From a phage: a stretch of 64,000 bases of DNA. The stretch is from NCBI GenBank assembly GCA_027262695.1, contig GCA_027262695.1_4722.1, one strand, 5' to 3'. A program made the translations under genes and the position numbers. Shown here piece after piece: positions 6,972-24,484 of the stretch. Below the pieces are notes generated by a model. It did not search any database. It had not been told where the DNA came from and saw only the letters and a list, made by a program, of their open reading frames with translations. Each line of letters opens with the position of its first letter. Within the stretch, counting starts at the first letter, position 1.

Positions 6972-6986
6972 GTTCGATTCCTCGTA

Positions 6987-7430: not shown

Positions 7431-7460
7431 GGTAGGTTCCTCTTGATAGATGGTAGTAAC

Positions 7461-7480: not shown

Positions 7481-7487
7481 TAAGTCT

Positions 7488-7958
7488 TTATAACACGCCC
7501 CAAGCCATATTGGGTACAGGCTCGTTACGTTCGATGTAATACATCAAGCGTTCTTTAAGTTTGGTTAACGCCTCAGCAACGATGTTCTCCATGGCAATCA
7601 CCTTTCCAATGTAATCCATGGTATCCTGCCACGTAAACCATTCGACGGTATTGACGATGTAAAGGGTTTCATCGTCGTCGGTCATGACCTTGGCATTTTC
7701 ACGATGATCGCGGGTCGCGTATAACGGTGTTTTTAGATTCGCTCTGATACGTACCCAGAGCTTCTCCAGGAAATCGCTCGGTTGACTATCTGTCGTGATG
7801 ATAAGTTCACTCCGTACTGAACGCTCTCCACGCTTTTCAATAACAAGTAAACCATCGTAAGTGATGTTCATCAAGTTACGAAGGTCATCATTGCTATTCC
7901 AGTCTTTTACAACAGCAGGAAGTTGGCTATTGTACTCTTCAGGTAATCTCTTAAGCAT
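7488..7958 (-). CDS. hypothetical protein
   Basis: 156 aa ORF, 8-nt overlap with upstream gene. Confidence 0.5.
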   Translation of the reverse strand: MLKRLPEEYNSQLPAVVKDWNSNDDLRNLMNITYDGLLVIEKRGERSVRSELIITTDSQPSDFLEKLWVRIRANLKTPLYATRDHRENAKVMTDDDETLYIVNTVEWFTWQDTMDYIGKVIAMENIVAEALTKLKERLMYYIERNEPVPNMAWGVL

Positions 7959-8403
7959 CGGTTTCTGCTCCTATATCACGTTTGAGTTCGGCGACCAGTT
8001 TGTCGTAATGGTCTTTTATCACATTCGCCATAACGAATTGCGCTTTTCTCACTAGCTGCTCATTGGCATCACTGAATGTAAAATACTCTCGCACTTCAAC
8101 CGGATGTGATACGCCACCGATATCGTAGGCTTTATTCGATGTGCGTTGAGCGATCACTGGGAGCGGTTTCGCGGCGTTCAGCGCAGTACAGATTTCCGTA
8201 ACGAGTTCTTGAATTTGGCTTTTCCCTTCGATGATAACGCTGCAACGATAAACATCCACCTCGTTAAGTTGTTCAACAACATCCGCCTTGATTTTGAATT
8301 GACCTACAAGCGCGCTTACTAAAGTGCGGTGCCAATTGTTCACCACTCCAACCAGCAATGGATGATTCTCAAGATCTCTTCTGTTCATTTCTGAGCTCCT
8401 CAA
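7951..8403 (-). CDS. hypothetical protein
   Basis: 150 aa ORF; GAGGAG RBS upstream. Confidence 0.5.
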   Translation of the reverse strand: MRSSEMNRRDLENHPLLVGVVNNWHRTLVSALVGQFKIKADVVEQLNEVDVYRCSVIIEGKSQIQELVTEICTALNAAKPLPVIAQRTSNKAYDIGGVSHPVEVREYFTFSDANEQLVRKAQFVMANVIKDHYDKLVAELKRDIGAETDA

Positions 8404-8425
8404 TCGCTCTATAACAAACTTTTAG

Positions 8426-8450
8426 AGGAAGGGAAACATATTCCCTTCCT
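8426..8450. terminator. hairpin AGGAAGGGAA-acata-TTCCCTTCCT
   Basis: 10-bp perfect inverted repeat between same-strand genes. Confidence 0.45.
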
Positions 8451-8467
8451 TGAGTTAGTTTATTGCG

Positions 8468-8743
8468 TTATACGTCTTTTCTGTGCGCGTAGAACGCCTT
8501 CGTTCCGTTGTTGATCGCCTCAACCACATCCGGGGTTAACACAACGGCGATATCGCTTCGAGATGACGGTGCGTAATACCCTTCACCGTTCTCGGTAATC
8601 AGGCGATAACGGACTAAGCCTATGTTCGGTTCAACGCGTACCACTCTTTCGAGTTTGTACTTGATGATCTTCGTCAGGCCGATAGTCTCTGATGCGTAGA
8701 TGGCTTTATAAACTTTGTTCTTTGCTGTCGTTTTCATCAACAT
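8468..8743 (-). CDS. hypothetical small protein downstream of paralog A
   Basis: Start chosen at ATG 8743 (AAGGA 10 nt upstream); ORF track extends to 8812, overlapping the upstream gene. Confidence 0.4.
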   Translation of the reverse strand: MLMKTTAKNKVYKAIYASETIGLTKIIKYKLERVVRVEPNIGLVRYRLITENGEGYYAPSSRSDIAVVLTPDVVEAINNGTKAFYAHRKDV

Positions 8744-9599
8744 GGTTTCTGTTTTCCTTGGTTTGTTGTGGTCCCAGGTCGGAGATATCCCAACGGATAT
8801 AACCAACATCACGGATTCGCTCGGCTGTTTCTTCGGATTGTGGATTACGACTGATAACCGGTAGCCATTCCCCTTCTCGGGTTATCTTAACTTCGGTGAT
8901 CTGTAAGCTCATGTTCCAACGAACGTCATAAACCAGCGCGTAACCAAGAGGATGAACAAGCCCATCTTGGTTATACATCTTCAAAAGACCTCTTACATCT
9001 TCGCTACGAAGTGATTTCATGGCTGGACGTACGCGTTGAAGTCTCTTTGTGATATCGTATCCCAACTTAATATCCTTCCAACCCGTCATGACGTAAGGAA
9101 CAACGTTGCGGCGACGGAGTTGATGGTTGTGAGTGGTTTCTTCGGCGGTAAGATGTACCCAACCGAGATCGCTGTACGCCACGAACCGCGCTCCTTCTCC
9201 ATCGAGCACTGTGTGCTCATCTAACGCTGCTGCAACACCATGGCCTGCGTAATACGACGGAAGAACGTTCAGCATTTTAATACGGCTTTCTTGACCGGTA
9301 TGGTCAGGGTCGATATGCGCGTAGTAATAATTACGGCTTACCGGACGACCTTCCGCCATACATCCACGGAAGACAGGGTCCTGCATTCCAAGCGGATGGT
9401 AATACGCGAGCTGTTGCTCGTCACCTTCCCCGATGACCAACAAACGATCTTCACGACTTGGTGTGCTAGGATCTTTCACCGTGATGTAGGTAACAATCAC
9501 TTTCAGATTGTCTAAAATGTCCTGTGGAAGTTTCTCTAAATCCCGTGCGTCGTAAATACGATTAACAACAACGTTTGCAATGTGTTTTGGTAAGCTCAT
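8706..9599 (-). CDS. hypothetical protein, tandem paralog A (YYHPxGMQ / DLGWxHL / GYxRWDISDL family)
   Basis: 297 aa; shares YYHPLGMQ, SDLGWVHL, RRNVVPYVM, HPLGY, GYIRWDISDL with the two neighbouring ORFs. Confidence 0.6.
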   Translation of the reverse strand: MSLPKHIANVVVNRIYDARDLEKLPQDILDNLKVIVTYITVKDPSTPSREDRLLVIGEGDEQQLAYYHPLGMQDPVFRGCMAEGRPVSRNYYYAHIDPDHTGQESRIKMLNVLPSYYAGHGVAAALDEHTVLDGEGARFVAYSDLGWVHLTAEETTHNHQLRRRNVVPYVMTGWKDIKLGYDITKRLQRVRPAMKSLRSEDVRGLLKMYNQDGLVHPLGYALVYDVRWNMSLQITEVKITREGEWLPVISRNPQSEETAERIRDVGYIRWDISDLGPQQTKENRNHVDENDSKEQSL

Positions 9600-9679
9600 T
9601 TTAGATCTCTCTTTGTTATCGGTAAAATAAATAACGGCATAAATGGGACATAACTGTCCCCGTGTTAAATATCAACTGT

Positions 9680-10522
9680 TCACGCTTTCAAGTCTGAAAT
9701 ATCCCAACGTACGTAACCTGTACGCTCAATGTCGTCAACCAGTCGCTCGGTTTGATTTTCAACGCCAACGACGGGCACCCAATTTAAACGCCAGCGTCCA
9801 CCGACATTAACCTCAACACGCTGCAGATCTTCATTCCAACAAACCCCATTCGGTCTCAAAAAGCCCATCGGATGGATGTAGTCCTCATCGTAATCTTTCA
9901 ATAGCGCGAGAATATCGCTTCGGCTATAAGTCTTCACGCTTGCTAGATGTACGCTTTGTAGCTTATCACGCAGACCCCAACCGTACTCACTATCACGCCA
10001 TTCAGGCATGACAACCGGCAGTACATTCCGATGACGGATGTATTTTGCCGCTTCAGCAATATCAGCTGGGAGATGTATCCAACCTAAATCGCTGTTAGCG
10101 ACAAAATCAGGACTATCCATTTCATGGATGTAACGATCGTAAAGCGTAGCAGCGAGTCCTTCAGCAAGCACGTTTGTTGGAAGGAGGCAGTTGGCGCTTA
10201 TCTTGAAATCGAATACATCGGCATCAGGATCCACGTATGCGTAAAACCCGCGCGCAAAAGCACCGCCATGCTCTTTGAAGTAGTATTGGAACACAGCGTT
10301 TTGCATTCCGATGGGGTGGTAGTAAGCCAACACACGTTGTTCGCCGTCCGTGATTTCAATGAGCCGATCTTTCGGCTTCGGCCAGGTGATCTTCTCAACA
10401 TCGCAAACGCTGACGATCTTTCGTAGATTCACCTTGATATGTTCCGGGAGATGCCCGATTTCATTTTCATGATAAACACGGGTGATGACGTGATGAATAA
10501 CAGATTGTGGTTTAGCTGTCAT
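9680..10522 (-). CDS. hypothetical protein, tandem paralog B
   Basis: 280 aa; YYHPIGMQ, SDLGWIHL, HRNVLPVVM, HPMGF, GYVRWDISDL. Confidence 0.6.
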   Translation of the reverse strand: MTAKPQSVIHHVITRVYHENEIGHLPEHIKVNLRKIVSVCDVEKITWPKPKDRLIEITDGEQRVLAYYHPIGMQNAVFQYYFKEHGGAFARGFYAYVDPDADVFDFKISANCLLPTNVLAEGLAATLYDRYIHEMDSPDFVANSDLGWIHLPADIAEAAKYIRHRNVLPVVMPEWRDSEYGWGLRDKLQSVHLASVKTYSRSDILALLKDYDEDYIHPMGFLRPNGVCWNEDLQRVEVNVGGRWRLNWVPVVGVENQTERLVDDIERTGYVRWDISDLKA

Positions 10523-10554
10523 TTGACGTCTCCTTTTCGTTTGTTGGTGATGGT

Positions 10555-10854
10555 TTAGGGTTTAGGTTCCGTTTTGTATTGTGCGAGTAATGCGTTGATC
10601 TGCTCCCGTTGTTCTTTTAAGCATGTGGGAAGCTGGTCTTCCCGTACCGTTCCGATTTCCAACGTGATGTACCAACGTTGTTCGGAAGCCTGCCATTGAA
10701 AACTGCTCTGTAACCGAAGGATGTTGGGATCGCGTACCTTGCTTGCGCTGTAGCGATCGAACCAATCCAGATAAGCGGCTTTTCCTTCCTCGTCGGCAAC
10801 GTAACGCTGCACGCTGTTCTTGCCTTTGTTCTCGTATCCCGTGATGCGGATCAT
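10555..10854 (-). CDS. hypothetical small protein coupled to paralog C
   Basis: Start at ATG 10854 forms ATGA overlap with stop of 10851-11627. Confidence 0.4.
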   Translation of the reverse strand: MIRITGYENKGKNSVQRYVADEEGKAAYLDWFDRYSASKVRDPNILRLQSSFQWQASEQRWYITLEIGTVREDQLPTCLKEQREQINALLAQYKTEPKP

Positions 10855-11627
10855 GCGAACGTTTCTCCTGTAACGTGTTGCGGATAGCGTAGCATGGTAA
10901 CATCCCATTGTACGAATCCCTGCTGTTGGAGTTGTTGCATAACCGCTTCAACGTCTTGTCCTGGATGCGCAACCGGCAACCAACGTGTATCCAGCACCTT
11001 CGCTTCAAGGCGGGCTTTGCGCTTGTTCCAACGTACCTCGCTGATCCATGCGAAGCCAAGCGGATGCACCACCTGCGGGTAATGCACGCGCAGCAGGTTC
11101 TTCATCCGGCGAAGGATTGCAAGCCTGGCGTCAAGCGCGTATGGTTTCACCTGGTTAAGCTTGCGGGTGTAATACGTTCCCACGGTTTGGTTCGCCCAAC
11201 CAGGAAGCGCATGATGGGACCCAGCCTGCAATGTATTGTCCCCGTTCGTCTTCAACCAACCGTATTGCCCTGCCGCACGTCCTTTCTCATGTTCAACTTG
11301 TACCAGCTGATCGATGAACGAAGCATCAACGATACCGTGATCCACCTCATCCAACGCATAGCGCACCACCAACCCGCTCGCGCTCATCCGTGCGGGATGC
11401 TGGCTCCGATGCGCGTACCAAACCCTATTAACATGCAGCCGAGAAGGATACGTGTGTGCGCCACGCCAAAACACTTTTCCGAGAACACGTTCTCCACAGT
11501 ACACCATCACCCCTTTGTGATCGATTAGGTAATCCAACACCTTCATGCATTCCGCTTTGATGCTATCCGGTAATGCTAAGTATTCCTCTTCGGTGAACAC
11601 GGTATCAAAAATGATTTCATCGCTCAT
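10851..11627 (-). CDS. hypothetical protein, tandem paralog C (more divergent)
   Basis: 258 aa; HPLGFAWISEVRWN and GFVQWDVTML correspond to motifs in A and B. Confidence 0.55.
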   Translation of the reverse strand: MSDEIIFDTVFTEEEYLALPDSIKAECMKVLDYLIDHKGVMVYCGERVLGKVFWRGAHTYPSRLHVNRVWYAHRSQHPARMSASGLVVRYALDEVDHGIVDASFIDQLVQVEHEKGRAAGQYGWLKTNGDNTLQAGSHHALPGWANQTVGTYYTRKLNQVKPYALDARLAILRRMKNLLRVHYPQVVHPLGFAWISEVRWNKRKARLEAKVLDTRWLPVAHPGQDVEAVMQQLQQQGFVQWDVTMLRYPQHVTGETFA

Positions 11628-11677
11628 GGATAAAGTTCCTTGTTTTCACGTTGTTTGATTAACGTATTGATTTCTGA

Positions 11678-11712
11678 TGATGATAACATCGATATGTTTG
11701 CTGTTATCAAGA
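11678..11712 (-). promoter_or_regulatory. candidate sigma70-like promoter for the minus-strand early gene array
   Basis: On minus strand TTGATA, about 17 nt spacer, then GTTATCAT about 50 nt upstream of the 11627 start; by eye only. Confidence 0.25.
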
Positions 11713-11879
11713 AGGTAATATAGCCGTGAAAGGATTTGTATTACAGAAAGGATATTTGTTTTTAAGAAGGGACGATGGTTATCAGGAAGGAGGTTATCGG
11801 TAGGTGTAGGAGAGGGGATTTCAAGGAAGGTTTAAGAGGATAGTTATGTTGTTTAGTTGAGAGTTTGCTAAAATAGCTT

Positions 11880-12070
11880 TATCGTTATCTTAGTTTATCT
11901 GTGTATTCGTTAGGTATCTTGATTTATCTTCTTAATGATCTTTTCAAAAGTGTTATCATGGTTATCTTAGGTTATGTCTTAATTGTTTTATCTTGGTATG
12001 TTTAAGTTGTTTTAAGTTATCTGTTTATCTATCTTGTTATCTTGTTTAAGTTGTTAATGGCTTATCTTCA
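11880..12070. repeat. iteron-like cluster: at least 9 copies of TTATCT plus two copies of GTTTAAGTTGTT
   Basis: Direct repeats read from sequence inside a roughly 950-bp ORF-poor AT-rich island (11628-12584). Confidence 0.55.
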
Positions 12071-12073
12071 AAA

Positions 12074-12130
12074 CAATGGATAACATGTGTTTACTACGCT
12101 CGTTGAGTTATAACTCAACGGTAACACATG
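12074..12130. repeat. nested palindrome ACATGTGTT...CGTTGAGTTATAACTCAACG...AACACATGT
   Basis: Perfect 20-bp palindrome CGTTGAGTTA/TAACTCAACG flanked by 9-bp outer inverted repeat. Confidence 0.5.
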
Positions 12131-12536
12131 TCATCTGTGCATTACACTACGTTACATGCTTATCAACGTTTTGTGAAGACAAAACGTTCAACTCTAAAAA
12201 ACCATTTGTGATACTCTTCTTCACGTTGTTCATCAGAGTATCTCGTCTATCCTCACTGCGTTCGCATACGACATCACCGTTATACGCTAACGCTACGCTT
12301 ATAGCTTATAACTCTAAGGATAAAAACATAAACTCGCTTCGCTCGTTTAGTTTTTCTTTTTCTTAGAGTTATCATGTTGCTCGTCTCTAAAGGACTTCGC
12401 TCCTCCCCCGTCCCCCGAAGGGGCCGAGGTCGTGGAAATTTTACTTTCCAAATACATTTACAACGTCTGTAAACTTTTACCGACACATACCTAATCTTAT
12501 ATTTAAAATTAGAAAAAGAGAAAATACGAACATAAC

Positions 12537-12566
12537 CCTCCTCCAACCCGGAAGGGAAGGAGGAGG
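12537..12566. terminator. hairpin CCTCCTCC-AA-CCC-GGAA-GGG-AA-GGAGGAGG (canonical family member)
   Basis: Read directly; immediately downstream of stop of 12585-13478. Confidence 0.55.
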
Positions 12567-12584
12567 TGATAACAGTCTATTTAA

Positions 12585-13478
12585 TTAATCGGAAGTGTTA
12601 TAACCGAATACTGCTTTACCGTAGGTGTGAGTACCATCACTGAGTGACAATACTAATACGTGGTTATACGCATCGTTAACACCCTTGTCGGTAGAATCGG
12701 TGGTAACACCGTTGTAGACAAAGGTAGCTGATTGCAGATTGGTTTTCAGTTCATTGATGATATCATCACTTACACCAGTCTGCTCTTTAATCAGAGTAGT
12801 CAGGTTACCTGCTAAGCTTGCGTCGAGATTTACTTCGTTGCCAGTAATAGCTTGTAAACCTGAAGCGTAAGTACTGAAGTCTAACGGATAGGTTAACAGA
12901 CGTGCTGACGTTTTGGTACCATTGCCTTCATCAACGTAGGTTAAGTTACCCAGGTTGGTAACCTTGATAATGTTAGACAGATCCAGCGTTGTGTTATAAA
13001 CTTTAACTTGAACAGAACCATACCAAGCCAACGAATCTTCTTTGGCTTCCAGGGTAACGGTTTGGATACCTGACTGATCAAAGGTAACGGGATTAGATAA
13101 CGTTTCAGCTTTGATGTCTTTTGTTTTATCCAGGAACTTCTCGCCGGAAGGCGTAACCATACCGTAGCGTTGAGCTACGAGGTCGACCACGTCACCGATG
13201 GTGGTGTTTGCTTCAACACTAACGCGCACCGCGATCTTCTGGAACCATTTAGCCAGATCCAGACGATGATAGGTGACATCGCGGGTATTGAAGTACGGTG
13301 TACCATCACCCGGACTGAGTGTTAATGTTGCTGCACTATCAGAATCGCTTTTGGATTTAAGAACGTATTTGAGATCAGTGTATTTGAAACTGGCTCCCGT
13401 ATCGGCGTTAAGCTGGTTGATCTCATCAACGATAAGTTGCCACGGTGTTTTCAAAGTAAGTGATACTCGACTTGACAT
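12585..13478 (-). CDS. putative tail/baseplate-associated structural protein, member of 4-copy paralog family
   Basis: 297 aa; shares Y-x-R-[IL]-D-L and LAW-[YT]-GSV motifs with 24541-25446, 26363-27214, 27225-28160. Confidence 0.55.
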   Translation of the reverse strand: MSSRVSLTLKTPWQLIVDEINQLNADTGASFKYTDLKYVLKSKSDSDSAATLTLSPGDGTPYFNTRDVTYHRLDLAKWFQKIAVRVSVEANTTIGDVVDLVAQRYGMVTPSGEKFLDKTKDIKAETLSNPVTFDQSGIQTVTLEAKEDSLAWYGSVQVKVYNTTLDLSNIIKVTNLGNLTYVDEGNGTKTSARLLTYPLDFSTYASGLQAITGNEVNLDASLAGNLTTLIKEQTGVSDDIINELKTNLQSATFVYNGVTTDSTDKGVNDAYNHVLVLSLSDGTHTYGKAVFGYNTSD

Positions 13479-13620: not shown

Positions 13621-14163
13621 ATGGCCTTAGACTTTAACAAAGCAGCGAAATCCCTTCTGCTCGATCTTATCAACACCAAAGCAACTCGCACACTGACCGA
13701 AGAAGAACTGCAGTTCGGTACTCCGGGGGCATCTTCCGAACATTCTAAGAACACCGTTATTCAGCTGGATGCTGCGGATGAAGCAGAAAACCTGCAGGGT
13801 ACTCAGCAGTTCTACTACGATCGTCTGGCTCTATCTGACGTTTTCGCTGATGTAACCGGCGATGTTACTTTCGAACTGCCGCACGGTACTGAAAGCATCC
13901 AGGCTTCCGAGCTGGTAAGCAAGCTGGTCACCAAATTCGGCCTGGCTTCCCTGACCGGTGAAATCAAAGAAGAAACCTTCCAGCTGTCTGCAGGTACTGT
14001 TGGTCAGGTAACTCTGAGCGCGATCGAGAACGGTCTGGTATATACCGGCACTCTGCAGGTTGCTCTGACCTATGCAGCAGCACCGAAAGACGAACTGGCA
14101 ACCGTTCTGGCGAATAACGTAGCTGAAGGTTTCGTGAAACCTGAAGTAGCTGTCGTTGGCTAA
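13621..14163 (+). CDS. abundant small virion protein (decoration or tube-like; function not resolved)
   Basis: 180 aa ORF with strongly host-optimal codon choice (CTG, CGT, GGT, GAA, AAA) unlike neighbours. Confidence 0.55.
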   Translation: MALDFNKAAKSLLLDLINTKATRTLTEEELQFGTPGASSEHSKNTVIQLDAADEAENLQGTQQFYYDRLALSDVFADVTGDVTFELPHGTESIQASELVSKLVTKFGLASLTGEIKEETFQLSAGTVGQVTLSAIENGLVYTGTLQVALTYAAAPKDELATVLANNVAEGFVKPEVAVVG

Positions 14164-14457: not shown

Positions 14458-15093
14458 TTATTCAGCACTGAAACCGTTCAAACGGATAGCTTCGTAACGT
14501 TTACGTTCACGACGTTTACGCGCCTGCCAACCGTAAATGAACTTCTCGTCTTTCTCACGACGTTCAGCTAATTCGATGTAATACATGCTCTGCATATCCA
14601 GCATCGCGTCGATAAGGTAATCTTTACCTTGCTCGCCACGTTTTGCGATATAAGCGTCCAACGCACCTAAGGTTTTAGGTCCCATCCCACCATCAGCGTC
14701 AATATCTTTCCAGTAAGTTTGACGGTTGTTCATGACGTTGAGGTAACGCTGGAGGTTCTTAACGGCAACGGATTTGCCTGCATTGATACCCAGATCAAAG
14801 AGACGGTCAGCTAAGAACACGGAACGCTTCATGACGTCATCAAGCTTCATCTTATCCCAGAAGTGGGTTTTGTAGATGAAGAACGCCATGTCGTAGGTCA
14901 GATTGCGCATATTACCATTCCAACCGAATTTCGTTTTCAGCGTGGTTTTGTATTGATCGGCGAGCGCTTTCGTAATTCCCATCATGGTTTCATTACCGCT
15001 GTCATCTGGGTCGTTGACGTATCCCGCCTCGATGTTGGTTTTATCACGAATGATGAATTCGCAGGTAAAATCTTTTTCAGTAATCTTGGTCAT
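14458..15093 (-). CDS. endolysin, GH108-type N-acetylmuramidase with C-terminal peptidoglycan-binding region
   Basis: N-terminal EAGYVNDPDDSGNETMMGIT matches GH108 signature EGGYxxDPxDxGGxTxxGIT. Confidence 0.7.
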   Translation of the reverse strand: MTKITEKDFTCEFIIRDKTNIEAGYVNDPDDSGNETMMGITKALADQYKTTLKTKFGWNGNMRNLTYDMAFFIYKTHFWDKMKLDDVMKRSVFLADRLFDLGINAGKSVAVKNLQRYLNVMNNRQTYWKDIDADGGMGPKTLGALDAYIAKRGEQGKDYLIDAMLDMQSMYYIELAERREKDEKFIYGWQARKRRERKRYEAIRLNGFSAE

Positions 15094-15219: not shown

Positions 15220-17268
15220 TTAAATACCCTTGGTTCCTTTCACGCGGTGCGCAATTTCTTCAACCATTGCACGCAAGGCACGAAGCTGTTGGTCGTGTTC
15301 GTACCAACCGCCTAACAGAACCCCGCTATACACCATGGTGTCCAGACTTAACAGTCCTTTATCTGATACGTTGATCATTTCAGGGAACTGTTCTTGTACA
15401 CGTTGTGCGATAACACCGATCTTCTCAACATCAGGATCGTAGTCGTGACGGAAACGGGCAAGCCCGGTGTATGCCATTTCACGTAAACGATCACTGAAAG
15501 ATTCTGGATGGTCTTTCAGATAACGGATGTCGTGTTTACTACGCTCATCTGAACGGATGTATGCGTTAGGAACATCGATGTTGCTGTTGAAGTACAACGC
15601 GCTACCACCACCTGCAGAGTTACCCCAATAGAAGCTAGTAAGAATGCTACCGCCATTACCTGTAACATGCACGGTGCTTCCCACCCTCGTTCCACCGCTA
15701 CCATCAACGAAGACCAGTTTGTTTCCGCTGTAAGAACCCCAGAACAGACGACTATCGATGATGTTGGTTGCGGCGAGGCGGGCGTTACGTGGTGTAGAAT
15801 AGACGGTGTTGATATCTTGCTGCGCCTGTGCGTCAGAAGCGATACCGTAGTTCTGCACATTACCTAAACCTACTTGGGCTTTTGTAACAGCGTGAGGGTT
15901 GTCTCGACGGTTAGCGTGATTGTTAACCAGATCGCCCGCCAATTTCTGAATTGCCCAGTTGGTAGACTGTGGCGTCATGTAACGGTTAGTTGCAGAACCA
16001 CCTTGCGCCTCAGCTTGGTTAGCGGTTGGGTAGTTCTCAACGCTTCCTAACCCTACTTGTGCCTTAGACACTTGGTGCGGGTTATTCTTGTCGGCAATAT
16101 GTGCATTAAGCGGAACTAACGCGAAGGTCTCGATGGACGCTTTGGTTGTGTTCGGTGCCATTAATCGGTTAGCTGCAACCCCAGCACGTGCTTCATCCTC
16201 CGAAGCCATCGGATAGTCTTGCACATTACCTAATCCTACCTGCGCTTTGGTCACCTTGTGCGGGTTGTTGTAATCGGTTTTATGTGCGTTAAGCGGAATC
16301 AATGCGAATTGTTCAATCGCTGCAACGGTACGTAGCGGCGTCATGAATCGGTTATTCGCTGTTCCGTCCTTCGCCTCGCTATCCGAAGCGGTCGGGAAGT
16401 TATCAACGTTCCCAAGGTTAACCTGTGCTTTGGTAACGCTATGTGGGTTATCTTTACGATTAGCGTGAGCGTCGACTAGATCCCCACCCAGTTTAGCAAT
16501 CGCCCATCCAACCGTTTGTGCGGTCATGTATCGGTCAGGTGCTGTACCGGCTTCTGCCTCCGCCTTGTTTGCGGTAGGATAGTTCTGTACATTACCTAAA
16601 CCTACTTGGGCTTTTGTGGTTTCGTGCGGGTTATCGGTACGGTTAGCATGCGCGTAATGCAGATCGGTAAGGTCTTTATCCGCCGCTTGCATGTCTTTAC
16701 GTAGCTGATCGATTGCCGCCCAGAGACGGTTATCGGACGCAGCATCACCGATAAGTATTGCGGCTTTCAGCGAATAGATCGCTAAGCAAAGATGTTCGGT
16801 ACCGTAGATAGCACTAACATGGTGGATGTGTGGTTCAGGCGGATAAAGTTCCGGTTTGTTCTTGATGTCGTCCCAGTTGATCGGACGATCGTCAAGTTTG
16901 AGTTCTTCGATAGCCTGATATAACGCGTCAATAAGACTTACGTAAACACCACCGATGATACGATAGTCGTTAATTAACGTCCCCTCGATATCATCGTTGA
17001 TGATGGCGATCGCCGCACAGATTTCTTTACCTGCGTAAAGCGTCGCATCCTGATACAAGAAGATGGGTTTATAATCCACGCCTCGTACCAGTGTCTTACC
17101 GGTAAGCTTTTCAGTGATGACCAGACTTTCGGTAAAGAACGGTCCGCCATCAAGGGCGTAACATTTATTCTCGGTTCGTGGAACGGTATGCTCTTCACCA
17201 ACGATGTGGTTGCTGGCGAGTGTACCGGTCCAGTCCTCGGGGTACTTCAGGGTAATTGGTGTCGACAT
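15220..17268 (-). CDS. tail fibre protein with five NPH-x-VTKAQVGLGNV repeats and C-terminal S74-type intramolecular chaperone domain
   Basis: Repeats DNPHETTKAQVGLGNVQNY etc.; C-terminal IRSDERSKHDIRYL matches S-D-x-R-x-K auto-cleavage motif. Confidence 0.7.
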   Translation of the reverse strand: MSTPITLKYPEDWTGTLASNHIVGEEHTVPRTENKCYALDGGPFFTESLVITEKLTGKTLVRGVDYKPIFLYQDATLYAGKEICAAIAIINDDIEGTLINDYRIIGGVYVSLIDALYQAIEELKLDDRPINWDDIKNKPELYPPEPHIHHVSAIYGTEHLCLAIYSLKAAILIGDAASDNRLWAAIDQLRKDMQAADKDLTDLHYAHANRTDNPHETTKAQVGLGNVQNYPTANKAEAEAGTAPDRYMTAQTVGWAIAKLGGDLVDAHANRKDNPHSVTKAQVNLGNVDNFPTASDSEAKDGTANNRFMTPLRTVAAIEQFALIPLNAHKTDYNNPHKVTKAQVGLGNVQDYPMASEDEARAGVAANRLMAPNTTKASIETFALVPLNAHIADKNNPHQVSKAQVGLGSVENYPTANQAEAQGGSATNRYMTPQSTNWAIQKLAGDLVNNHANRRDNPHAVTKAQVGLGNVQNYGIASDAQAQQDINTVYSTPRNARLAATNIIDSRLFWGSYSGNKLVFVDGSGGTRVGSTVHVTGNGGSILTSFYWGNSAGGGSALYFNSNIDVPNAYIRSDERSKHDIRYLKDHPESFSDRLREMAYTGLARFRHDYDPDVEKIGVIAQRVQEQFPEMINVSDKGLLSLDTMVYSGVLLGGWYEHDQQLRALRAMVEEIAHRVKGTKGI

Positions 17269-17281
17269 AACCTGGAGGTCC

Positions 17282-19879
17282 TTATAACGTGACTGTACCT
17301 AATTTGGTTGTCTTATTGAGATTAATGACAGAGATCTGGGTATCGCTGGTCGTAATCGTTCCGATATTAACGCGCTGTCCTTTATCATCTTCTTGCTTGT
17401 AGATGGTTAACTCCAGTTCTAACTGGTCGCCATTAGGAACAACGGAAACGTACCATGTTTTATTACCTGGTGAACTATTATAGTCTTTTAGGTTATAATG
17501 GCCTTTAGGTAAGGTCATGGCCTTACCGGCAAACAAACATGAAATGTCCTCGTTGATATAAACGTCGAAACCGGAAGAAGCGATGACTGTTGAGGCCATT
17601 ATTCGAGACGCGACGATACCACGATTATAGTCGTCGATTGTGGTACCTATGACATTGAATACTTGCCCCCCGTTACCCATAATGGTCGATTCGCTAGTGT
17701 TTACGTAGCCGATACCCCAAGTCGGATGAATGTTCCAGCGGTACCCACTGTTTTGTAAATATGTATACATGTCCTCATAGGCCGCATTCACCCAACTACC
17801 ATCACTTTTTCGTCCAGCCCTAAATTGGAATGTGTTGCTATTTCCAGATGTCCCTCGGCCAAGCGGGACATGTCCCGCTACTAACCAACCATCCGTACTT
17901 TGCATATATGCGAACGAACCGTACGCTCTGTTATCAGCCCAAATATTCACGGTATCAACACGCTCAACGTAGGCGATTACCTTTTGTACGCCAGTTATAG
18001 CGATTGAACCCTTGCGTGCCGACAAATTAACTTCTGCGATTACAACACCCATTTTACGCTGGCTGCCACTAAACCCCAATACAACCATTAAACACGGTGC
18101 GTTTGTTGCTTCAGGAGGGATTGTTATCGATTGTTTCCAGTCGGTGATTCCGTTGAGTTTTGTTCCAGTGTATGCGTTCCAGACGGTTTGTCCAGCCGAT
18201 TTCAGATTCTGTTCAGAAATAGAAATGCTATCGCCCTCAGGGATTAACGTGTCGTAATTAAGACCGATGTTACTGGATAGACGATTGTCATTTAAGTAAG
18301 ATCCACTGAGTGTGACGTTATTGTTACGATATATTGTCAAGAATGGCGCAGCCAGAGCGTCTAATACCGTAAAGTTACTTGATGGCATGAAACCATAGAC
18401 ATCGATACCATTACCGTGGTAATGGTAGTTTGTCCAACTACCTTGATAACTTACGGTACGCCCATCGTAGTGACCTTGTTCACCGCCACTGCTAGACAAC
18501 GTGTATATCTTGGTTGCTGATAGAAATGCGAGATACCCATGAGCCGCCAAAGCTCCAACAACCCTGTCTTTTATCTTTAACCAATCTGAAGTATATAACG
18601 TACTGTCGGGATTCATTTTGGCTATTTCATCGTAAGCTGTGCCTGCGAAGTTTCCGATAGTGTACGTACGTATATCCGGCTGTCCGTTATTGTCGTTCTG
18701 TACAGCAATTACTTGCCCAGAATCATTGATATCGATATTACCGATACAGTTGTGAGGCCCCCACACCCAATATCCATCTTTATAATTGGATTCTCCTTGT
18801 GTGAATGTTGATGGTCCTCGCCACGCGATGCCGTTCGATTCGGCGTAGTAGGTCGCTTGCCCCGATCCGGGATTCATGGCGTATTTGTTATTGGTTGGGT
18901 CAAAATCGATGTAAAAATGATGCATTCCTTGACGTTGATGATTGTTCTGATCATTTGTCCACCACGATGAACCGACCAGAATTCGCGCTTTACCATTTTT
19001 TACAGTGGACCATAAACGTATTGCAGCGCGCCAGATGATTTGACCGATCCCGTTAGACGGGAAACTATTCGCACTTATACGGTTACAGACTATGAGTTCG
19101 CTGCTATTGTTTACTTGAGTCCCTTCAATTGTGACACCGTTTATGTTAGTGATCAGTGTTGCCGATACACTACCCCCTGTAGGGGCGATAGAGGAACGTT
19201 GAACGGTGTAAATTTTTAGTGATAATTTATAGCCGTCCCTAACAGCAATCCCAATGTAAATAGTCCCGTTAATTTCCCAACAACAAACATCGGGCATCGT
19301 TTCTTTGAAATCGGATAAAGCACCATCGATATACATTGCAACGTGTTTACTGGCATCGAATGTACCATCCGTTAACGCGATGAACATTTTGGCGTTATTA
19401 CCGTTGATATCAGCCGCTAATCCGAGTAGTATGTTGTTCTGATGACAGTAGATGGCTTTAGGTGCTAGATCCAACATAGCCGGTTGGTACTGTCGGCTTG
19501 TCGGTATTACGCTAGTAACTGCACCATTTTGATCCGTTTTACAAATAACGTAATATACGCCATGTATGATGCTGTTTGTCGCCGACCTTAGTAGGACAAT
19601 CGTCCCGTCAGATTCACGACATATACCGTAATGACGATAGTCGGTGATTAAGCCGATAGCACCATCAGCAGAGCCTTCAATTGCCAGAGGAAAATAACTT
19701 TGGTCCCCAACCTGTTCGATATCGGTTGCGCCAATATCGATGTATTTTTCCATCTCAGTGTTGAACTCAGCGGTACTGTAGGCACCGAGATCGCTCGCCT
19801 TTAGTCCCGTTGGGTTGTCGCGACTGGCGATACGCGTAGTAACGCTACTCACCAGTTCGCTGAACTTTTTCATTGCCAT
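17282..19879 (-). CDS. putative tail fibre / tailspike protein
   Basis: 865 aa, Gly/Ser/Thr/Asn-rich; N-terminus RDNPTGLKASDLG resembles the fibre repeat; in tail-fibre operon. Confidence 0.5.
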   Translation of the reverse strand: MAMKKFSELVSSVTTRIASRDNPTGLKASDLGAYSTAEFNTEMEKYIDIGATDIEQVGDQSYFPLAIEGSADGAIGLITDYRHYGICRESDGTIVLLRSATNSIIHGVYYVICKTDQNGAVTSVIPTSRQYQPAMLDLAPKAIYCHQNNILLGLAADINGNNAKMFIALTDGTFDASKHVAMYIDGALSDFKETMPDVCCWEINGTIYIGIAVRDGYKLSLKIYTVQRSSIAPTGGSVSATLITNINGVTIEGTQVNNSSELIVCNRISANSFPSNGIGQIIWRAAIRLWSTVKNGKARILVGSSWWTNDQNNHQRQGMHHFYIDFDPTNNKYAMNPGSGQATYYAESNGIAWRGPSTFTQGESNYKDGYWVWGPHNCIGNIDINDSGQVIAVQNDNNGQPDIRTYTIGNFAGTAYDEIAKMNPDSTLYTSDWLKIKDRVVGALAAHGYLAFLSATKIYTLSSSGGEQGHYDGRTVSYQGSWTNYHYHGNGIDVYGFMPSSNFTVLDALAAPFLTIYRNNNVTLSGSYLNDNRLSSNIGLNYDTLIPEGDSISISEQNLKSAGQTVWNAYTGTKLNGITDWKQSITIPPEATNAPCLMVVLGFSGSQRKMGVVIAEVNLSARKGSIAITGVQKVIAYVERVDTVNIWADNRAYGSFAYMQSTDGWLVAGHVPLGRGTSGNSNTFQFRAGRKSDGSWVNAAYEDMYTYLQNSGYRWNIHPTWGIGYVNTSESTIMGNGGQVFNVIGTTIDDYNRGIVASRIMASTVIASSGFDVYINEDISCLFAGKAMTLPKGHYNLKDYNSSPGNKTWYVSVVPNGDQLELELTIYKQEDDKGQRVNIGTITTSDTQISVINLNKTTKLGTVTL

Positions 19880-19891
19880 TATTCACCTCGA

Positions 19892-20377
19892 TTAAATAGG
19901 CGAGTCGGGTAGCTGACCATCATCGATCTCGATGGTGGCCACCTTACGTGTTGCAGCAAGATGTGATGTACCCTGGATTTTGTTCCAGGTGCCGATACGC
20001 ATGGCGTTTTTGTAGCTGCTATCGCTATCGTTCAGCGTGTAAACAAAACCGCTATCGGTTACGGCAAGATAGATCCAGCCTACAGACTCACTGATGCCTG
20101 ACACGTCCAAAGTTGCTGCTGGCACCGTCCCTACCACCGTGTTGTATTCCGCTGTACCTTGACCAATGCTGATCCGTCCGTTGCTGTAACTGGCTGCTGG
20201 AAGCGTTTTATTTCGACTGAAGAAAAGAAACGGAAGGTAACGCTGGGTAACAAGCGGTGCAAGTTTAGGAGCCACTTCGGTCTTAACGTAGACATCTGTT
20301 TGTGCTGGCGTTACCTCGTGAGGGTTCTTTTGGGTAAGATACGTCCCCCATTCAGAAAGCAGTGTTGATAGCTTCAT
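19892..20377 (-). CDS. small tail-fibre-associated protein
   Basis: 161 aa; N-terminus QKNPHEVTPAQTDV is a single copy of the fibre repeat. Confidence 0.45.
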   Translation of the reverse strand: MKLSTLLSEWGTYLTQKNPHEVTPAQTDVYVKTEVAPKLAPLVTQRYLPFLFFSRNKTLPAASYSNGRISIGQGTAEYNTVVGTVPAATLDVSGISESVGWIYLAVTDSGFVYTLNDSDSSYKNAMRIGTWNKIQGTSHLAATRKVATIEIDDGQLPDSPI

Positions 20378-20381
20378 GCGG

Positions 20382-20897
20382 TTACCCCATGTAACGTTTT
20401 TGGCCGAGGATGAAGACTTTGTTAAATACCACCGAAGTGATTCCTGTTGCGTTACAGCTCACCTGCCCGACGCGAATTGCTGTTGACGTATCGACCCCAG
20501 CACTACTCTGCCAGATCCAATCGATCGATCCGTCTTTCTGACGAATGAAAAGATAACCGGTTTTGTTCGCCCAGTCGGAAGTAAGTTTTTTGATGTCTAG
20601 CGTTCCCTTCGCCAGAATATAGTCGGTACCGGCGATCATGACGGGTATTTCAGGATACGAGATTACCGTACCGCTGGCAGTAACGTTGCTGATGCGTTCG
20701 CTACGAATATCGGTACAGTCACCGAAATACGCTACGGGGAGTATCCCCTTAGGGAGCTTTTTGCCGATTCTCGTATCGATCGTGTTTTTATCGGGTGCGT
20801 CGATTTGCGCTGCGGTGACTTGGTTAGGGTTATCCTTCCTTGCGTACCATGTCGTCATGCGAGCACCCAATTCACTCATTTTTGTGCCCATTTTCAC
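20382..20897 (-). CDS. small tail-fibre-associated protein
   Basis: 171 aa; N-terminus RKDNPNQVTAAQIDA is a single copy of the fibre repeat. Confidence 0.45.
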   Translation of the reverse strand: MKMGTKMSELGARMTTWYARKDNPNQVTAAQIDAPDKNTIDTRIGKKLPKGILPVAYFGDCTDIRSERISNVTASGTVISYPEIPVMIAGTDYILAKGTLDIKKLTSDWANKTGYLFIRQKDGSIDWIWQSSAGVDTSTAIRVGQVSCNATGITSVVFNKVFILGQKRYMG

Positions 20898-20948
20898 ATC
20901 CTATCGAAAAATAAAAAGAAGGAAAGGTGGGTAGAACCCACCCATCCG

Positions 20949-23102
20949 TTATAACGTTTCGAAGTCGGTTGCTTTGATAACCGCGTTGAAGTTGGCAAGG
21001 AATTCCTTAAGCAACGCTTGGAAGACATCACGGAACGCCGTGTTCGTCTTCAAACTGGTTAAATAATCGTTCTTAAGGTAATCGCTCAGCTTACCGATCT
21101 TCTGCATCTTCTCGCCGTCTTCGTTCTCTCCAGGTTCTTGGCTGTTGATGTTAACCCATTTGATCCCTTCGAGATCGCCATCGGCAAGGAAGTTAGCGGG
21201 CGTCTCATCGTCGTTCAGGATTTTAATTGTGTCGCTGGATTCAATGCCACCGTAAGCTTCCAGAAGCTGGTTGACTGTTAGCGTGTTGGTGTTGATTGAA
21301 CCATTGACACCATCAATACCGATGCCTGCACCTGTGATGGATGTCGCCGAAAGATCGATCGGCCCGGTTAACTTACCACCGTTGATCGGTAACGCACCAA
21401 CTTGCTCTGCGGTGTGTGTGTGGTTGGCTAACGCCGCAAACGCCGCGATAGACTTATATGTCGAATACGGCGTCATGTACGCTGATTGGTTGGTGTTGTC
21501 AGCGGCTTCAGTATCGGTAGCGACATTAAAGTTCTGCACGTTGCTGAGACCGACCTGCGCCTTCGTTACTTCATGCGGGTTGCTCTTATCGACAACGTGT
21601 GCTGCAAAACCGTCACCGGCTAAAGCGGTGATTGCTGCTTTTGTCGCAGCCGGTGTCATATAGCGGTTGGTTGCTTCACCTGCCTGTGCTTCCGCATCAG
21701 AAGCAACAGGATAGTTCTCAACGCTCCCCAAACCGACCTGAGATTTTGTTACTTGGTGTGGGTTTTCGGTATTCGCGATATGGCTACTGAATCCTTGACC
21801 AGCCAGTTGCTCGATTGCGTAACGAACAAGTATTGGCGTCATGTACTTGTTGTTAACCTGACCATCGATGGCTTCTTGGGTGGTGGCAACCCCGAAGTTT
21901 TGCACGCTCCCCAACCCAACTTGCGCTTTCGTAACAGCGTGGGGGTTATTGGTGTTACCGATGTGATCGGTAACCGTTGGGGTGATTAATCCTGCGATAG
22001 CGGCTGCCGTGGTCGCAGGGGTCATGTATTTATCGTTAGCAACACCCGCAGCAGCTTCTACGTTAGATGCTACACCGTAGTTCAATACATTTCCTAACCC
22101 AACCTGCGCCTTGGTTACCCCGTGGGGGTTGTTCTTGTCTCCGGTATGGGTTGTCAACGTAGCGTTAACGTTATCGATACGCGTGCTTAAGCTATCAGTG
22201 ATTGCTTTGATTGCGGCTCGTACACCCGCTGGTGTTGTGTACAGATCTGTGGCCGTACCGGTAATGGTTGTATTACTATCGGCTACACCGTAGTTCTCAA
22301 CGTTTCCGAGTCCCACCTGGGCTTTCGTTACCTTGTGTGGGTTGTTGTAGTTGCTGATGTGCGCAGCAGCACTATCACCACTCAGGTTAGCGATCATCTT
22401 ACGCGTCATCGCCAACGTCATGTACAGATTTTCACCGATGGTTTCCAGATCGCTCTCGGTCGCCGTTGTGAAGTTCTGCACATTCCCCAATCCAACTTGA
22501 GCCTTGGTTACCCCATGGGGATTATCGCGACGATTCTCGTGCTGCAGCAATGCGGTCATTGCTTTATTGAACCCTTCTTCAAGCGGTTCTTTCAATGATT
22601 CGATTGCAGCCACCACATCGTCCCACGTCATTGTGTCGGTTTCGACATTATGCTGGTGGTTGATTGGCGGGAATACGGAAGGAACGTCGGCAACCTTTTC
22701 CCAGAACGTAACGCGGGGATCGTAAAGGTTGTTGGCTAAAACGTTAAGAATTTGTTGTTGATCAAGTGTAAACTCACCCCCCAGTGAATAGTAGTTCAGT
22801 TGCAACTGTCCACTGAATGCGGTGTCCAACAGCATGATGGAACCGTATAATTCCAGGCCGGTCAGCGCAGCCATGGCACGGAAGGGGTGAGTGCATAAAA
22901 AGTCAACGCCTTCTTCCAGATACGCGTTTGTTTCCGGGTTGTAGATCTTTAATCCATTACGAAAATATGGCGCGTATTTAGGAACGAGAAAGTTAAATCC
23001 GGTCCCCGTGGAAGGACGGACAGTGACGAGTTCTTCTGGAACCCATGCGCCATCCAAATTCCCCTGCGGGTTATACGGAAGGCGTTTAATTTCATCTGTC
23101 AT
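20949..23102 (-). CDS. tail fibre protein with six NPH-x-VTKAQVGLGNV repeats
   Basis: 717 aa; repeats about 45-50 aa apart; C-terminal HTHTAEQVGALPINGGKLTG. Confidence 0.65.
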   Translation of the reverse strand: MTDEIKRLPYNPQGNLDGAWVPEELVTVRPSTGTGFNFLVPKYAPYFRNGLKIYNPETNAYLEEGVDFLCTHPFRAMAALTGLELYGSIMLLDTAFSGQLQLNYYSLGGEFTLDQQQILNVLANNLYDPRVTFWEKVADVPSVFPPINHQHNVETDTMTWDDVVAAIESLKEPLEEGFNKAMTALLQHENRRDNPHGVTKAQVGLGNVQNFTTATESDLETIGENLYMTLAMTRKMIANLSGDSAAAHISNYNNPHKVTKAQVGLGNVENYGVADSNTTITGTATDLYTTPAGVRAAIKAITDSLSTRIDNVNATLTTHTGDKNNPHGVTKAQVGLGNVLNYGVASNVEAAAGVANDKYMTPATTAAAIAGLITPTVTDHIGNTNNPHAVTKAQVGLGSVQNFGVATTQEAIDGQVNNKYMTPILVRYAIEQLAGQGFSSHIANTENPHQVTKSQVGLGSVENYPVASDAEAQAGEATNRYMTPAATKAAITALAGDGFAAHVVDKSNPHEVTKAQVGLSNVQNFNVATDTEAADNTNQSAYMTPYSTYKSIAAFAALANHTHTAEQVGALPINGGKLTGPIDLSATSITGAGIGIDGVNGSINTNTLTVNQLLEAYGGIESSDTIKILNDDETPANFLADGDLEGIKWVNINSQEPGENEDGEKMQKIGKLSDYLKNDYLTSLKTNTAFRDVFQALLKEFLANFNAVIKATDFETL

Positions 23103-23206: not shown

Positions 23207-24484
23207 ATGTATACATTGGTAAAAACTTACGGATTACCCGTAGGTTCCGGCACGGCCTGGACAGCACTTGAAGCGGGTGAAAGCGTCCTGAGCACGTTGT
23301 TCGCAACGTATCAAAAACTCAATATCCAGGTCCATGAAAGTTATACTGACCAGCAGCAGGTTATCGATCTTTATACGTTTCAATCCGAGCTTCAAAACAG
23401 CAGCGATACGCTTAATGCTTGGCTGAAGGCGAAGTCGGATGCCCACACCAACCTTCGTGGTCAACCGGGTGAACTCTCGATTAAAGCCCACAAGCTCTAT
23501 TGTCACGACGTTATCACGGTAGGCTTTCTTCCTAAAGTCGGTAATAGTGGATATCATCCAAGCAACGCGATTCCTGAATCGGAACGTACCGATATTCTCC
23601 TAACAAAAGCGAACACGAATTACGAGAACATCGGCAAGCACTGCTTGTTCACGGTAGGGGGTTACGTACACCCTCACGTTTACGGTAAGGATGTTGGTGT
23701 TTATATCCAGGGTGGATTCAAGACAGCCCAACGCAGCCAGGAAAACGATATCGGGATGATCGATTTCAGCTGTATCGGAAGTTTGGAGATTCATGCGATC
23801 ACAGAAGACATGATTGCGGATTCCACGAAGCTTTTACCGTACAAAGATGAGATGTATCTGCGCTTACCCCGTAAAGTCGCGGAAGATGAAACGGTCGCAT
23901 TAGTGTTCGGAGGTTACTTACATCTCCTCGATGACTGTTACACGATCGTTAGTGATACGACAGCAAAAATAAACTGCATTAACATGTTCTTGTACGAAAG
24001 GTATTTTCGTTCTCGTGAATATCTTGACTTAACCTCCCTCGGTATTCTCTTGGACGAAGAAAACCCACAATCGGATATTGTTGCGAACCGTTTGCTGTCC
24101 GATAAAGCCTTGAAAGCTTGGGTGACCCATCCATGCAGCTTTTGGGTTTATATCAAAGCAACCTCGATTCAAGTTACGCAAGAACCGCTACCGCGCAGTG
24201 GTGTGCCAGGACAGTATTTCTTAGGCAAGAAACCGGAAGGATTAATTCGCGCGGATCTTGGAGAACTACCTGCGTACGTACAGACTTACGAGAAACCACT
24301 GTGGGTACTTCATTCACGATGGGGACTTCGTAAGAACATGCTGTTTGAAAACACGTTATACAAACACACACGTGTTAAACGCCTCAATGATACACCGTAT
24401 CTCCATCAGGTATGGTTGGAAACGCATGCGACGTTACAAACCGTACACAAGCTGGAACTGATCGATTCCAGTCAGAAAAAATAA
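23207..24484 (+). CDS. hypothetical protein
   Basis: 425 aa ORF, divergent from tail-fibre operon. Confidence 0.55.
   Translation: MYTLVKTYGLPVGSGTAWTALEAGESVLSTLFATYQKLNIQVHESYTDQQQVIDLYTFQSELQNSSDTLNAWLKAKSDAHTNLRGQPGELSIKAHKLYCHDVITVGFLPKVGNSGYHPSNAIPESERTDILLTKANTNYENIGKHCLFTVGGYVHPHVYGKDVGVYIQGGFKTAQRSQENDIGMIDFSCIGSLEIHAITEDMIADSTKLLPYKDEMYLRLPRKVAEDETVALVFGGYLHLLDDCYTIVSDTTAKINCINMFLYERYFRSREYLDLTSLGILLDEENPQSDIVANRLLSDKALKAWVTHPCSFWVYIKATSIQVTQEPLPRSGVPGQYFLGKKPEGLIRADLGELPAYVQTYEKPLWVLHSRWGLRKNMLFENTLYKHTRVKRLNDTPYLHQVWLETHATLQTVHKLELIDSSQKK

Follow-up and report, generated by a model that had tools for sequence, protein, structure and literature searches.

A widespread 61-residue NPH repeat in the predicted fibre shafts of a Goslar-like jumbo phage, with partial copies in three anchor-less fibre paralogues

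Neither of the two published virion maps of chimalliviruses resolves the fibres. In phiKZ, the published description places the N-terminal segments of gp131, gp133, gp134 and gp135 under the peripheral-baseplate protein gp130, at a docking site of six N-terminal domains and a six-helix bundle; a 3+1+1+1 base is proposed, and an extended region below the docking site could not be built (PMC13250141). Fibres are likewise unresolved in the cryo-electron microscopy (cryo-EM) map (10.64898/2026.04.21.720040) of Escherichia phage vB_EcoM_Goslar, a nucleus-forming member of the Chimalliviridae with a jumbo genome of 237 kb. The present analysis concerns a 64,000-nucleotide (nt) stretch of phage DNA (GCA_027262695.1, contig GCA_027262695.1_4722.1; hereafter the window) and, within it, five adjacent minus-strand genes at 15220-23102, designated A to E. 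Two of them, A and E, carry tandem copies of a 61-residue repeat with an Asn-Pro-His (NPH) core, which is the predicted building block of the tail-fibre shaft in both proteins. As a whole, the five genes are probably best explained as two anchored, repeat-shafted fibres (A and E), the first matured by an S74 chaperone domain, together with three distal modules (B, C and D).

The 7.9-kb stretch 15220-23102 is 92.6% identical in nucleotide sequence to Goslar over 82% of its length, and its five genes are orthologues of Goslar gp025-gp029. Gene A (15220-17268; this and all following features lie on the minus strand unless stated otherwise) encodes 682 amino acids (aa), 95% identical to gp025, that comprise an anchor, a helix, five repeats, a variable tip and an S74 domain. 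Gene B (17282-19879, 865 aa) is the hypervariable orthologue of gp026 (65% identity), and the small genes C (19892-20377, 161 aa) and D (20382-20891, 169 aa) are orthologues of gp027 and gp028; all three encode fibre paralogues without the anchor domain. Gene E (20949-23102, 717 aa), orthologous to gp029, has an anchor, six repeats and a distal domain, without S74. The lengths of the E, D, C, B and A products (717, 169, 161, 864-867 and 682 aa) are constant in nine of nine Goslar-like genomes. Divergently transcribed from these genes is a plus-strand homologue of phiKZ gp130 (23207-24484; Goslar gp030 orthologue; 25% identity over 343 aa, E 8e-29), in the same position and orientation to the fibre genes as phiKZ gp130 to gp131. 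Sequence comparison identifies the cluster as the baseplate-fibre genes of a Goslar-like chimallivirus and the counterpart of phiKZ gp130-gp135.

The NPH repeat is confined to genes A and E in its full form. Back-translated, the pattern NPH-x-x-[ST]-K-x-Q-V matches the window 11 times, always on the minus strand, against 0.00 matches in dinucleotide shuffles; this bears out an earlier, sequence-only reading of the stretch, which had counted five copies in 15220-17268 and six in 20949-23102. The Asn of NPH lies at aa 213, 274, 335, 396 and 457 of A and at aa 194, 254, 325, 386, 447 and 508 of E. Copies recur every 61 aa (183 nt), apart from two spacings of 60 and 71 aa, and the 45-50 aa estimated in that reading is too short. 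Its placement of the arrays also needs adjusting: the full units of A (aa 203-507, from profile and structure model) occupy 15748-16662 instead of 15888-16668, and the six repeats of E (aa 184-558, from the profile) occupy 21429-22553, with NPH cores spanning 21537-22523, so that the proposed range 21692-22532 holds five copies and leaves the sixth outside.

The 11 copies give the unit consensus ...AH.....NPH.VTKAQVGLGNVQNY..A...EA..G.A.N.YMTP..T..AI..LA.., whose core reads NPH.VTKAQVGLGNV.NY in the units of A. Ten positions are invariant in all 11 copies (H5, N11, P12, H13, K17, Q19, V20, L22, V25 and A31), and each unit of A scores 90-107 bits against a profile of the 11 repeats. In 150 diverse homologues, which together hold 1,177 copies of the repeat, a spacing of 61 aa again predominates, and the best-kept positions are H5 (89%), N11, P12 and H13 (97%), G21 (96%) and L22 (94%). 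Tandem Repeats Finder detects no array in the DNA; the copies are 60-77% identical as DNA and share no exact run longer than 29 nt. Of the 732 pairwise differences in the 45-nt core, 542 (74%) fall at third codon positions, and identity is 70% for nucleotides and 85% for amino acids. Thus, conservation acts on the peptide, not on the DNA.

The repeat is very widespread. Among 1.84 billion cluster representatives searched with the profile, 16,347 proteins match at E<=1e-3, of which 4,344 also reach E<=1e-10, and a single protein may hold as many as 29 copies; the repeat number among homologues ranges from 4 to 29. Through the repeat, A and E each match about 30 PHROG families, and the functionally labelled ones among these are mostly tail or tail-fibre families. 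A check with phage fibre repeat profiles, proposed along with the original observation, came back empty: no family of Pfam-A or NCBIfam covers the repeat, in whole proteins or single units, even at E<=10. A full-text literature search for the motif string gave no relevant paper in a phage context, and in the passages of the phiKZ description around its fibre and gp131-135 terms the repeat was not found (PMC13250141). Five large proteins (P0039, P0051, P0057, P0083 and P0123) match profile positions 2-27 only, many times over. They contain the NPH...VGLGNV half alone; therefore that half can repeat without the half described below as gp34-like.

The AlphaFold2 (AF2) monomer model of A (mean predicted local distance difference test score, pLDDT, of 71) gives the same order of elements in all five units, in line with the structure prediction suggested as a check: first some 23 extended residues (NPH...NY), then a bridge leading to a helix of six residues (EA..G) and, after a loop and a second bridge, a helix of about 20 residues that starts after Thr-Pro. 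The repeats of the T4 fibre proteins gp34 and gp12 run in the order strand, short helix, loop, short strand, Ser/Thr-Pro cap and central helix, the last within a three-helix bundle (PMC5537660). The element order in the monomer model of A matches this order, the second half of the unit has a motif similar to that of the T4 repeats ([VI]A[ST]..E...G.....TP), and a Foldseek search with the model of A places T4 proteins among its five best matches (gp12 5iv5_AI, E 2e-5; gp12 5lye, E 0.016; gp34 5nxh, E 0.013). In a search of the Protein Data Bank (PDB), profile positions 30-52 gave five collinear weak matches to the gp34 repeats (whole-sequence E 4.7). The unit here differs from the T4 repeats in its length of 61 aa and its predicted central helix of about 20 residues, and also in an extra conserved segment, H-x7-NPH-x-VTKAQVGLGNV, for which no solved counterpart was found. 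We regard the unit as related to the gp34/gp12 repeat, with a longer helix and with this segment added.

In every unit of A and E, positions 5 and 13 are histidines, with a distance of eight residues between them (for example, His207 and His215 of A). None of the 11 local copies lacks either one, and they are kept in 89% and 97% of the 1,177 copies from 150 proteins; B and D have neither, and C retains only the one of NPH. A trimer would carry six histidines per repeat unit, an arrangement reminiscent of the metal sites of T4 gp37 and gp12. The near-invariant histidines (H-x7-NPH) may form metal sites on the trimer axis.

The anchor of A and E is predicted, from homology to phiKZ, to be the N-terminal beta-domain with the following helix, and the repeats to form the shaft. 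In A the beta-domain, a predicted baseplate anchor, spans aa 1-125 (16894-17268), and long helices (aa 151-173 and 176-208 in the AF2 model) connect it to the first repeat (aa 151-208, 16645-16818); from their position these helices are probably the counterpart of the phiKZ helical-bundle segment. In E the anchor domain lies at about 22728-23102, and the distal domain (20952-21428) begins with a partial repeat, HTHTAEQVGA. Residues 4-334 of E align with residues 5-330 of phiKZ gp131 (E 4e-43), and A matches gp135 (E 3e-31), gp131 (8e-30), gp134 (2e-23) and gp133 (4e-20). A second motif, W..(I/V)...P..(Y/F)PP..H.H, stands between anchor and helix in A (aa 131-150, 16819-16878) and E (aa ~124-142, ~22677-22733). 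It weakly matches the repeated W-D-D-I-x-x-K-P-x-x-F-x-P-S-x-H-x-H of PDB entry 9d93, annotated 'tail collar fibers gp4', and its region in A is modelled with AF2 confidence below 50.

The NPH repeat is also present in phiKZ, with two full copies in gp131, one each in gp132-135 and a terminal partial copy in gp131 and gp133-135. The two systems further share the homologous N-terminal domain, the gene order beside a divergent gp130 gene, the position of the repeat after a helix, and a family of paralogues with differing distal domains, one of them a beta-propeller. The window differs from phiKZ in having no more than two anchored paralogues, which carry 5-6 repeats where those of phiKZ carry 1-2, and three anchor-less paralogues, a kind represented in phiKZ only by the 110-aa gp132. 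Its distal domains also lack sequence similarity to those of phiKZ, and one of its fibres has an S74 domain.

All five orthologues, gp025-gp029, were detected in purified Goslar virions by mass spectrometry, with peptide DNPNQVTAAQIGAPDK observed for the D orthologue gp028 (Table S4 of 10.64898/2026.04.21.720040). The reported copies per virion are about 87 for gp025 and 75 for gp029, and 12.8, 13.8 and 14.3 for gp026, gp027 and gp028, numbers that carry a stated error of about +/-50% and refer to Goslar, not to the window phage (10.64898/2026.04.21.720040). The orthologues of B, C and D are thus virion proteins present in near-equal copies, which may fit one B-C-D heterotrimer (12 of each) or three homotrimers (18 of each). 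The supplementary tables of the Goslar genome paper contain nothing on gp025 or gp029.

B, C and D share an N-terminal module of about 45-60 residues, consisting of a helix followed by (K/R)-x-N-P-x-x-(V/L)-(T/K)-x-x-(Q/D). In B it spans aa 1-45 (19745-19879, RIASRDNPTGLKASDLGAYS), in C aa 1-42 (20252-20377, with KNPHEVTPAQ) and in D 20757-20891 (with KDNPNQVTAAQ). The sequence-only reading had seen one degenerate repeat copy at each of these N-termini, and the resemblance holds. In a six-frame translation of the window, the 11-repeat profile gives D (E 0.009) and C (E 0.037) as its sole extra hits, at profile positions 6-20. Conversely, a profile built from residues 1-42 of the B, C and D orthologues matches, outside these proteins, only E (7e-19, six stretches) and A (2e-14, five stretches), with one stretch at the start of each repeat. 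These reciprocal matches indicate that the resemblance is real, yet it is limited to the first third of the repeat unit. In phiKZ the same N-terminal profile best matches the last partial repeat (gp131 aa 308-339, E 2e-8; also gp133, gp134 and gp135), which, judged by its position, probably marks the junction between shaft and distal domain. Residues 3-45 of B further align with residues 28-70 of phiKZ gp132 (E 5e-4). Against phiKZ gp131-135, the B, C and D family profiles match only through the N-terminal partial repeat and find nothing similar in the distal domains.

Paralogy extends beyond this module. In hhalign, C 2-131 aligns with D 4-144 over 128 columns (probability 96.7%, E 4e-10), and D 72-164 aligns with B 767-861 (probability 94%, E 1e-7). 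The latter segment of B (17297-17581) is a C-terminal beta-domain common to D and to the B-like proteins of phages RAY and GAP32, where hmmsearch also supports it. BLASTP relates B to D (E 1e-3) and to aa 178-252 of E (E 1e-3). A word-indexed homologue search with D finds close relatives only (79-96% identical). The open reading frame of D had been called from GTG 20897 (171 aa); ATG 20891 is the likely start because all orthologues are 169 aa long and begin MGTKMSEL. Residues 88-158 of C show a sub-threshold match to a Pfam super-sandwich domain of polysaccharide lyase family 8 (E 0.0011; 19 bits versus a cut-off of 27).

Between the N-terminal and C-terminal modules, B has a beta-rich body with a predicted beta-propeller (aa 84-700, 17780-19630), modelled with pLDDT 80-95 for aa 84-360 and above 90 for aa 510-700. 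Foldseek matches it to the propellers of GH43, XusB, neuraminidase and CyRPA, with probability up to 1.0; the propeller of phiKZ gp131 is absent from the top 50 matches. B is the only strongly diverging gene of the cluster. Compared with gp026, its ends are 98-100% and its middle 40-55% identical, and its allele classes at loci L002-L010 are 96/89/80, 65, 48 and 33% identical to the window copy, all 864-867 aa long and all conserved in the first ~75 and last ~100 residues. Locus L003 combines a B of the window type with C and D of another lineage; therefore B has been exchanged alone, independently of C and D. The N-terminal NP is invariant in nine B orthologues, and the N-terminal module (invariant NP, helix and S-x-L) is kept in orthologues only 33-41% identical overall. 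These features make B a predicted receptor-binding unit and a likely determinant of host range.

Fused forms of B-type proteins occur in Erwinia phage RAY (Agricanvirus). In gp19 a B-type body is joined to an anchor and one repeat, and in gp20 to a helix and one full repeat; the N-terminus of B aligns to the start of a second repeat in gp20. The RAY proteins share with the window the B-type body with a D-type C-terminal domain, the anchor (gp19) and the repeat, whereas B of the window is a separate protein with only a third of a repeat. Another arrangement is seen in a distant relative (locus L009, a 101-kb Logan contig from SRR33371455), in which positions 4821-12595 encode an E-like protein of 724 aa, an A-like protein of 644 aa, D-like, C-like and B-like proteins and an endolysin. 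There the A-like gene has moved, lacks S74 and has a different C-terminal domain, while D, C and B are still adjacent.

Ser/Lys dyads have a catalytic role in the self-cleaving chaperone domains of endosialidases. In A, after the shaft repeats and the tip, the last 110 of the 682 residues form an S74 chaperone domain (aa 573-682, 15223-15552), which begins with SDERSK (15535-15552). The domain matches Pfam PF13884 above the gathering cut-off (26.3 bits versus 22; aa 573-631, profile positions 1-56 of 58), which agrees with the earlier recognition of SDERSKH as an S74 motif and with the HMM search proposed to check it; the Goslar GenBank note on gp025 already names PF13884. Ser573, the Asp and the Lys at +5 (S573-D-E-R-S-K578) are invariant in 14 homologues. 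As a single-sequence query against the PDB, A matches the chaperone domain of gp37 of Salmonella phage S16 (6f45, E 0.003), and a profile of the 14 homologues finds 6f45 (2e-20), the MyRF ICA domain 7dc3 (2e-9), 8jov (4e-9), the GA-1 neck appendage 3gud (1e-7), 9vvr (8e-5) and T5 pb1 8hqz (5e-4). SDERSK aligns with SDERHK, the first residues of the released GA-1 chaperone 3gud, and with SDRRIK of S16 gp37. The AF2 model of aa 570-680 (pLDDT mostly ~77-87) shows strands followed by a long terminal helix; its Foldseek match to 7dc3 is weak (E 0.15, probability 0.72).

From these sequence features, an S74 domain with its catalytic residues is present in A, and A would be expected to cut itself before Ser573, with Lys578 as the predicted general base. 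The predicted fragment has 110 aa (12.8 kDa), not the ~120 residues first proposed, and would leave a mature A of ~61.9 kDa from a full-length gp025 of 74.6 kDa. In the Goslar virion peptide table, available up to about the letter D, both testable chaperone peptides (AMVEEIAHHVK and DHPESLSER) are absent, and seven of nine gp025 body peptides looked for within that alphabetical range are present. The domain of A resembles those of K1F endosialidase, GA-1 (3gud), T5 pb1 (8hqz), S16 gp37 (6f45) and MyRF (7dc3) in its place at the C-terminus of a fibre and its S-D-x-x-x-K motif. It differs in being divergent (26.3 bits) and in following a short Gly-rich tip (aa 508-572, 15553-15747) with no recognised triple beta-helix. 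This tip is the least conserved stretch of A among Goslar-like phages, with conservation falling to 80% around aa 525-550 in nine phages, and is modelled with pLDDT below 40. PF13884 occurs on about one in six A homologues among the matches listed, and the others bear different C-terminal domains; together with the distant relative without S74, this indicates that the chaperone-bearing tip is one exchangeable ending among several.

Taken together, these data suggest how the fibres may be built. By homology to the docked phiKZ segments, the anchor and helix of A and E would dock on the gp130 homologue. Going by the monomer model and T4 gp34/gp12, the 20-residue helices of a trimer would pack, unit by unit, into short three-helix bundles, and the H-x7-NPH-x-VTKAQVGLGNV-x-NY segment with the small strand-helix-strand element would form a knot between bundles, so that five or six units would make a segmented rod. 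The S74 chaperone would fold the distal tip of A and then presumably cut itself off before Ser573 through the Ser573/Lys578 dyad. B, C and D would be paralogous distal modules that have lost anchor and shaft, separated at the last repeat boundary. Their N-terminal helix and partial repeat would most likely serve in trimerisation and in joining the fibre, and B would present the variable receptor-binding body. The suggestion in the sequence-only reading of one attachment module shared across the operon accordingly has two outcomes: it is not supported for A and E, where the repeats make up the shaft and the N-terminal domain with its helix is the predicted anchor, and it may hold for B, C and D, in which the module is the most likely means of incorporation. 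A more specific and rather doubtful arrangement is that B, C and D are present once per fibre (12 of each on 12 fibres), as a pseudo-threefold heterotrimer attached by non-covalent contacts to the shafts of A/E or to their helical base; the N-terminal helix and partial repeat would then hold the trimer together. Such a heterotrimer would parallel the 3+1+1+1 base proposed for phiKZ, and, if it exists, the fibre would end in an exchangeable receptor-binding module of three paralogues with a single beta-propeller subunit.

Several observations weigh against this interpretation. The sequence likeness of the repeat to T4 gp34 is non-significant on its own (E 4.7), the TM-scores of the Foldseek matches to T4 fibres are low, because the models are extended, and the profile search of the PDB finds the NPH half of the repeat in no solved structure. 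The models are all of monomers, whose pLDDT is only 56-86 over the repeats and drops under 50 at the N-terminus of B, and the 11-repeat profile misses B. The fibre shaft is unresolved in the phiKZ and Goslar maps alike. The peptide evidence for cleavage rests on two peptides from the part of the table up to about the letter D. The +/-50% error leaves 12 and 18 copies of B, C and D unseparated, and the copies of A and E are about twice the 36 of a phiKZ-like count.

The most serious alternative concerns the partial repeat of B, C and D, which could be a relic of fission or duplication of a full-length fibre gene, in proteins held in the virion by other surfaces, such as the C-terminal beta-domain of B and D. 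The fused forms in RAY gp19 and gp20 would fit such a history, as would the loss of most repeat histidines, the conservation of the D-type C-terminal domain in the RAY and GAP32 homologues, and the last ~100 residues of B, which are as conserved across alleles as the first ~75. However, the N-terminal module is kept in orthologues with 33-41% overall identity, which argues for function and not decay, and it is the sole feature common to B, C and D and to A and E. A relic therefore seems the less probable origin, though one to be taken seriously. It is quite unlikely that C and D are assembly chaperones or tip adhesins of the lambda/P2 Tfa or T-even gp38 type, serving E or B and staying at the tip. 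Their small size (161 and 169 aa), their position directly downstream of E and their low copy number in virions are compatible with such a role, but neither matches a chaperone family of Pfam, NCBIfam or PHROG, and the PHROG matches of D are B-like structural families. Moreover, C and D are paralogous to the fibre protein B at both ends, carry the start of the fibre's repeat and are close in copy number to B but not to the E trimer.

For A, a non-cleaving S74 remnant that stays on the mature fibre would be in keeping with the Pfam score, which is only 4 bits over the cut-off, with the weak flag on precomputed hits, and with the A-type fibre of the distant relative L009 that lacks the domain altogether. 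The invariance of Ser, Asp and Lys(+5) in 14 homologues speaks against a remnant, as do the matches to S16 gp37 (2e-20) and five other solved chains (E<=5e-4), the agreement of SDERSK with the start of the released GA-1 chain and the two chaperone peptides unseen in the available part of the virion table; such a remnant is quite improbable. Least credible is the idea that the repeats serve mainly as DNA homology for recombination, which would adjust shaft length, fuse E to downstream modules and move host-range cassettes. The range of 4 to 29 repeats among homologues, the start of B, C and D at a repeat boundary and the exchange of B alleles might suggest it. On the other hand, the copies are only 60-77% identical as DNA, with no exact run above 29 nt and mostly synonymous differences, gene lengths are fixed in nine Goslar-like genomes, and the breakpoints of B exchange lie inside B and not at the repeat. 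Programmed fusion or recombination of E with the downstream genes was set aside in view of the low DNA identity of the repeats and the fixed lengths in nine genomes.

That these are fibre genes was already known, as were the S74 domain and the family of gp131-135 paralogues, and the features described here are ordinary ones for phage fibres that will not surprise a specialist. Three aspects seem not to be on record so far: that the 61-aa repeat is a defined unit, very widespread and yet uncurated; that it can be assigned to the fibre shaft of chimalliviruses, left unmodelled as the 'extended region' of the phiKZ map; and that three virion proteins begin at a partial repeat. The gene roles proposed here, with B as likely host-range determinant, provide targets for fibre engineering and focused cryo-EM, and a curated repeat profile would improve the annotation of phage fibre genes.

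A scan for sigma-70 promoters found fewer sites in the window than in shuffles. Genes E and D are separated by 51 nt, within which a GC-rich hairpin and, after it, a stretch rich in T (20925-20943) may act as an attenuator; this would fit the Goslar virion copies of E (~75) versus D, C and B (~14) and would leave the high level of the downstream A unexplained. Directly downstream of A lies an endolysin gene with GH108 and PG_binding_3 domains (14458-15093), whose Goslar orthologue gp024 is present in purified virions at ~76 copies, which is unusual for an endolysin (10.64898/2026.04.21.720040). Genes of the DUF7941 family stand on both sides of the fibre cluster (12585-13478 and 24541-25446 on the minus strand, 13621-14163 on the plus strand); this family has been proposed to form a filament cloud at the Goslar baseplate (10.64898/2026.04.21.720040).

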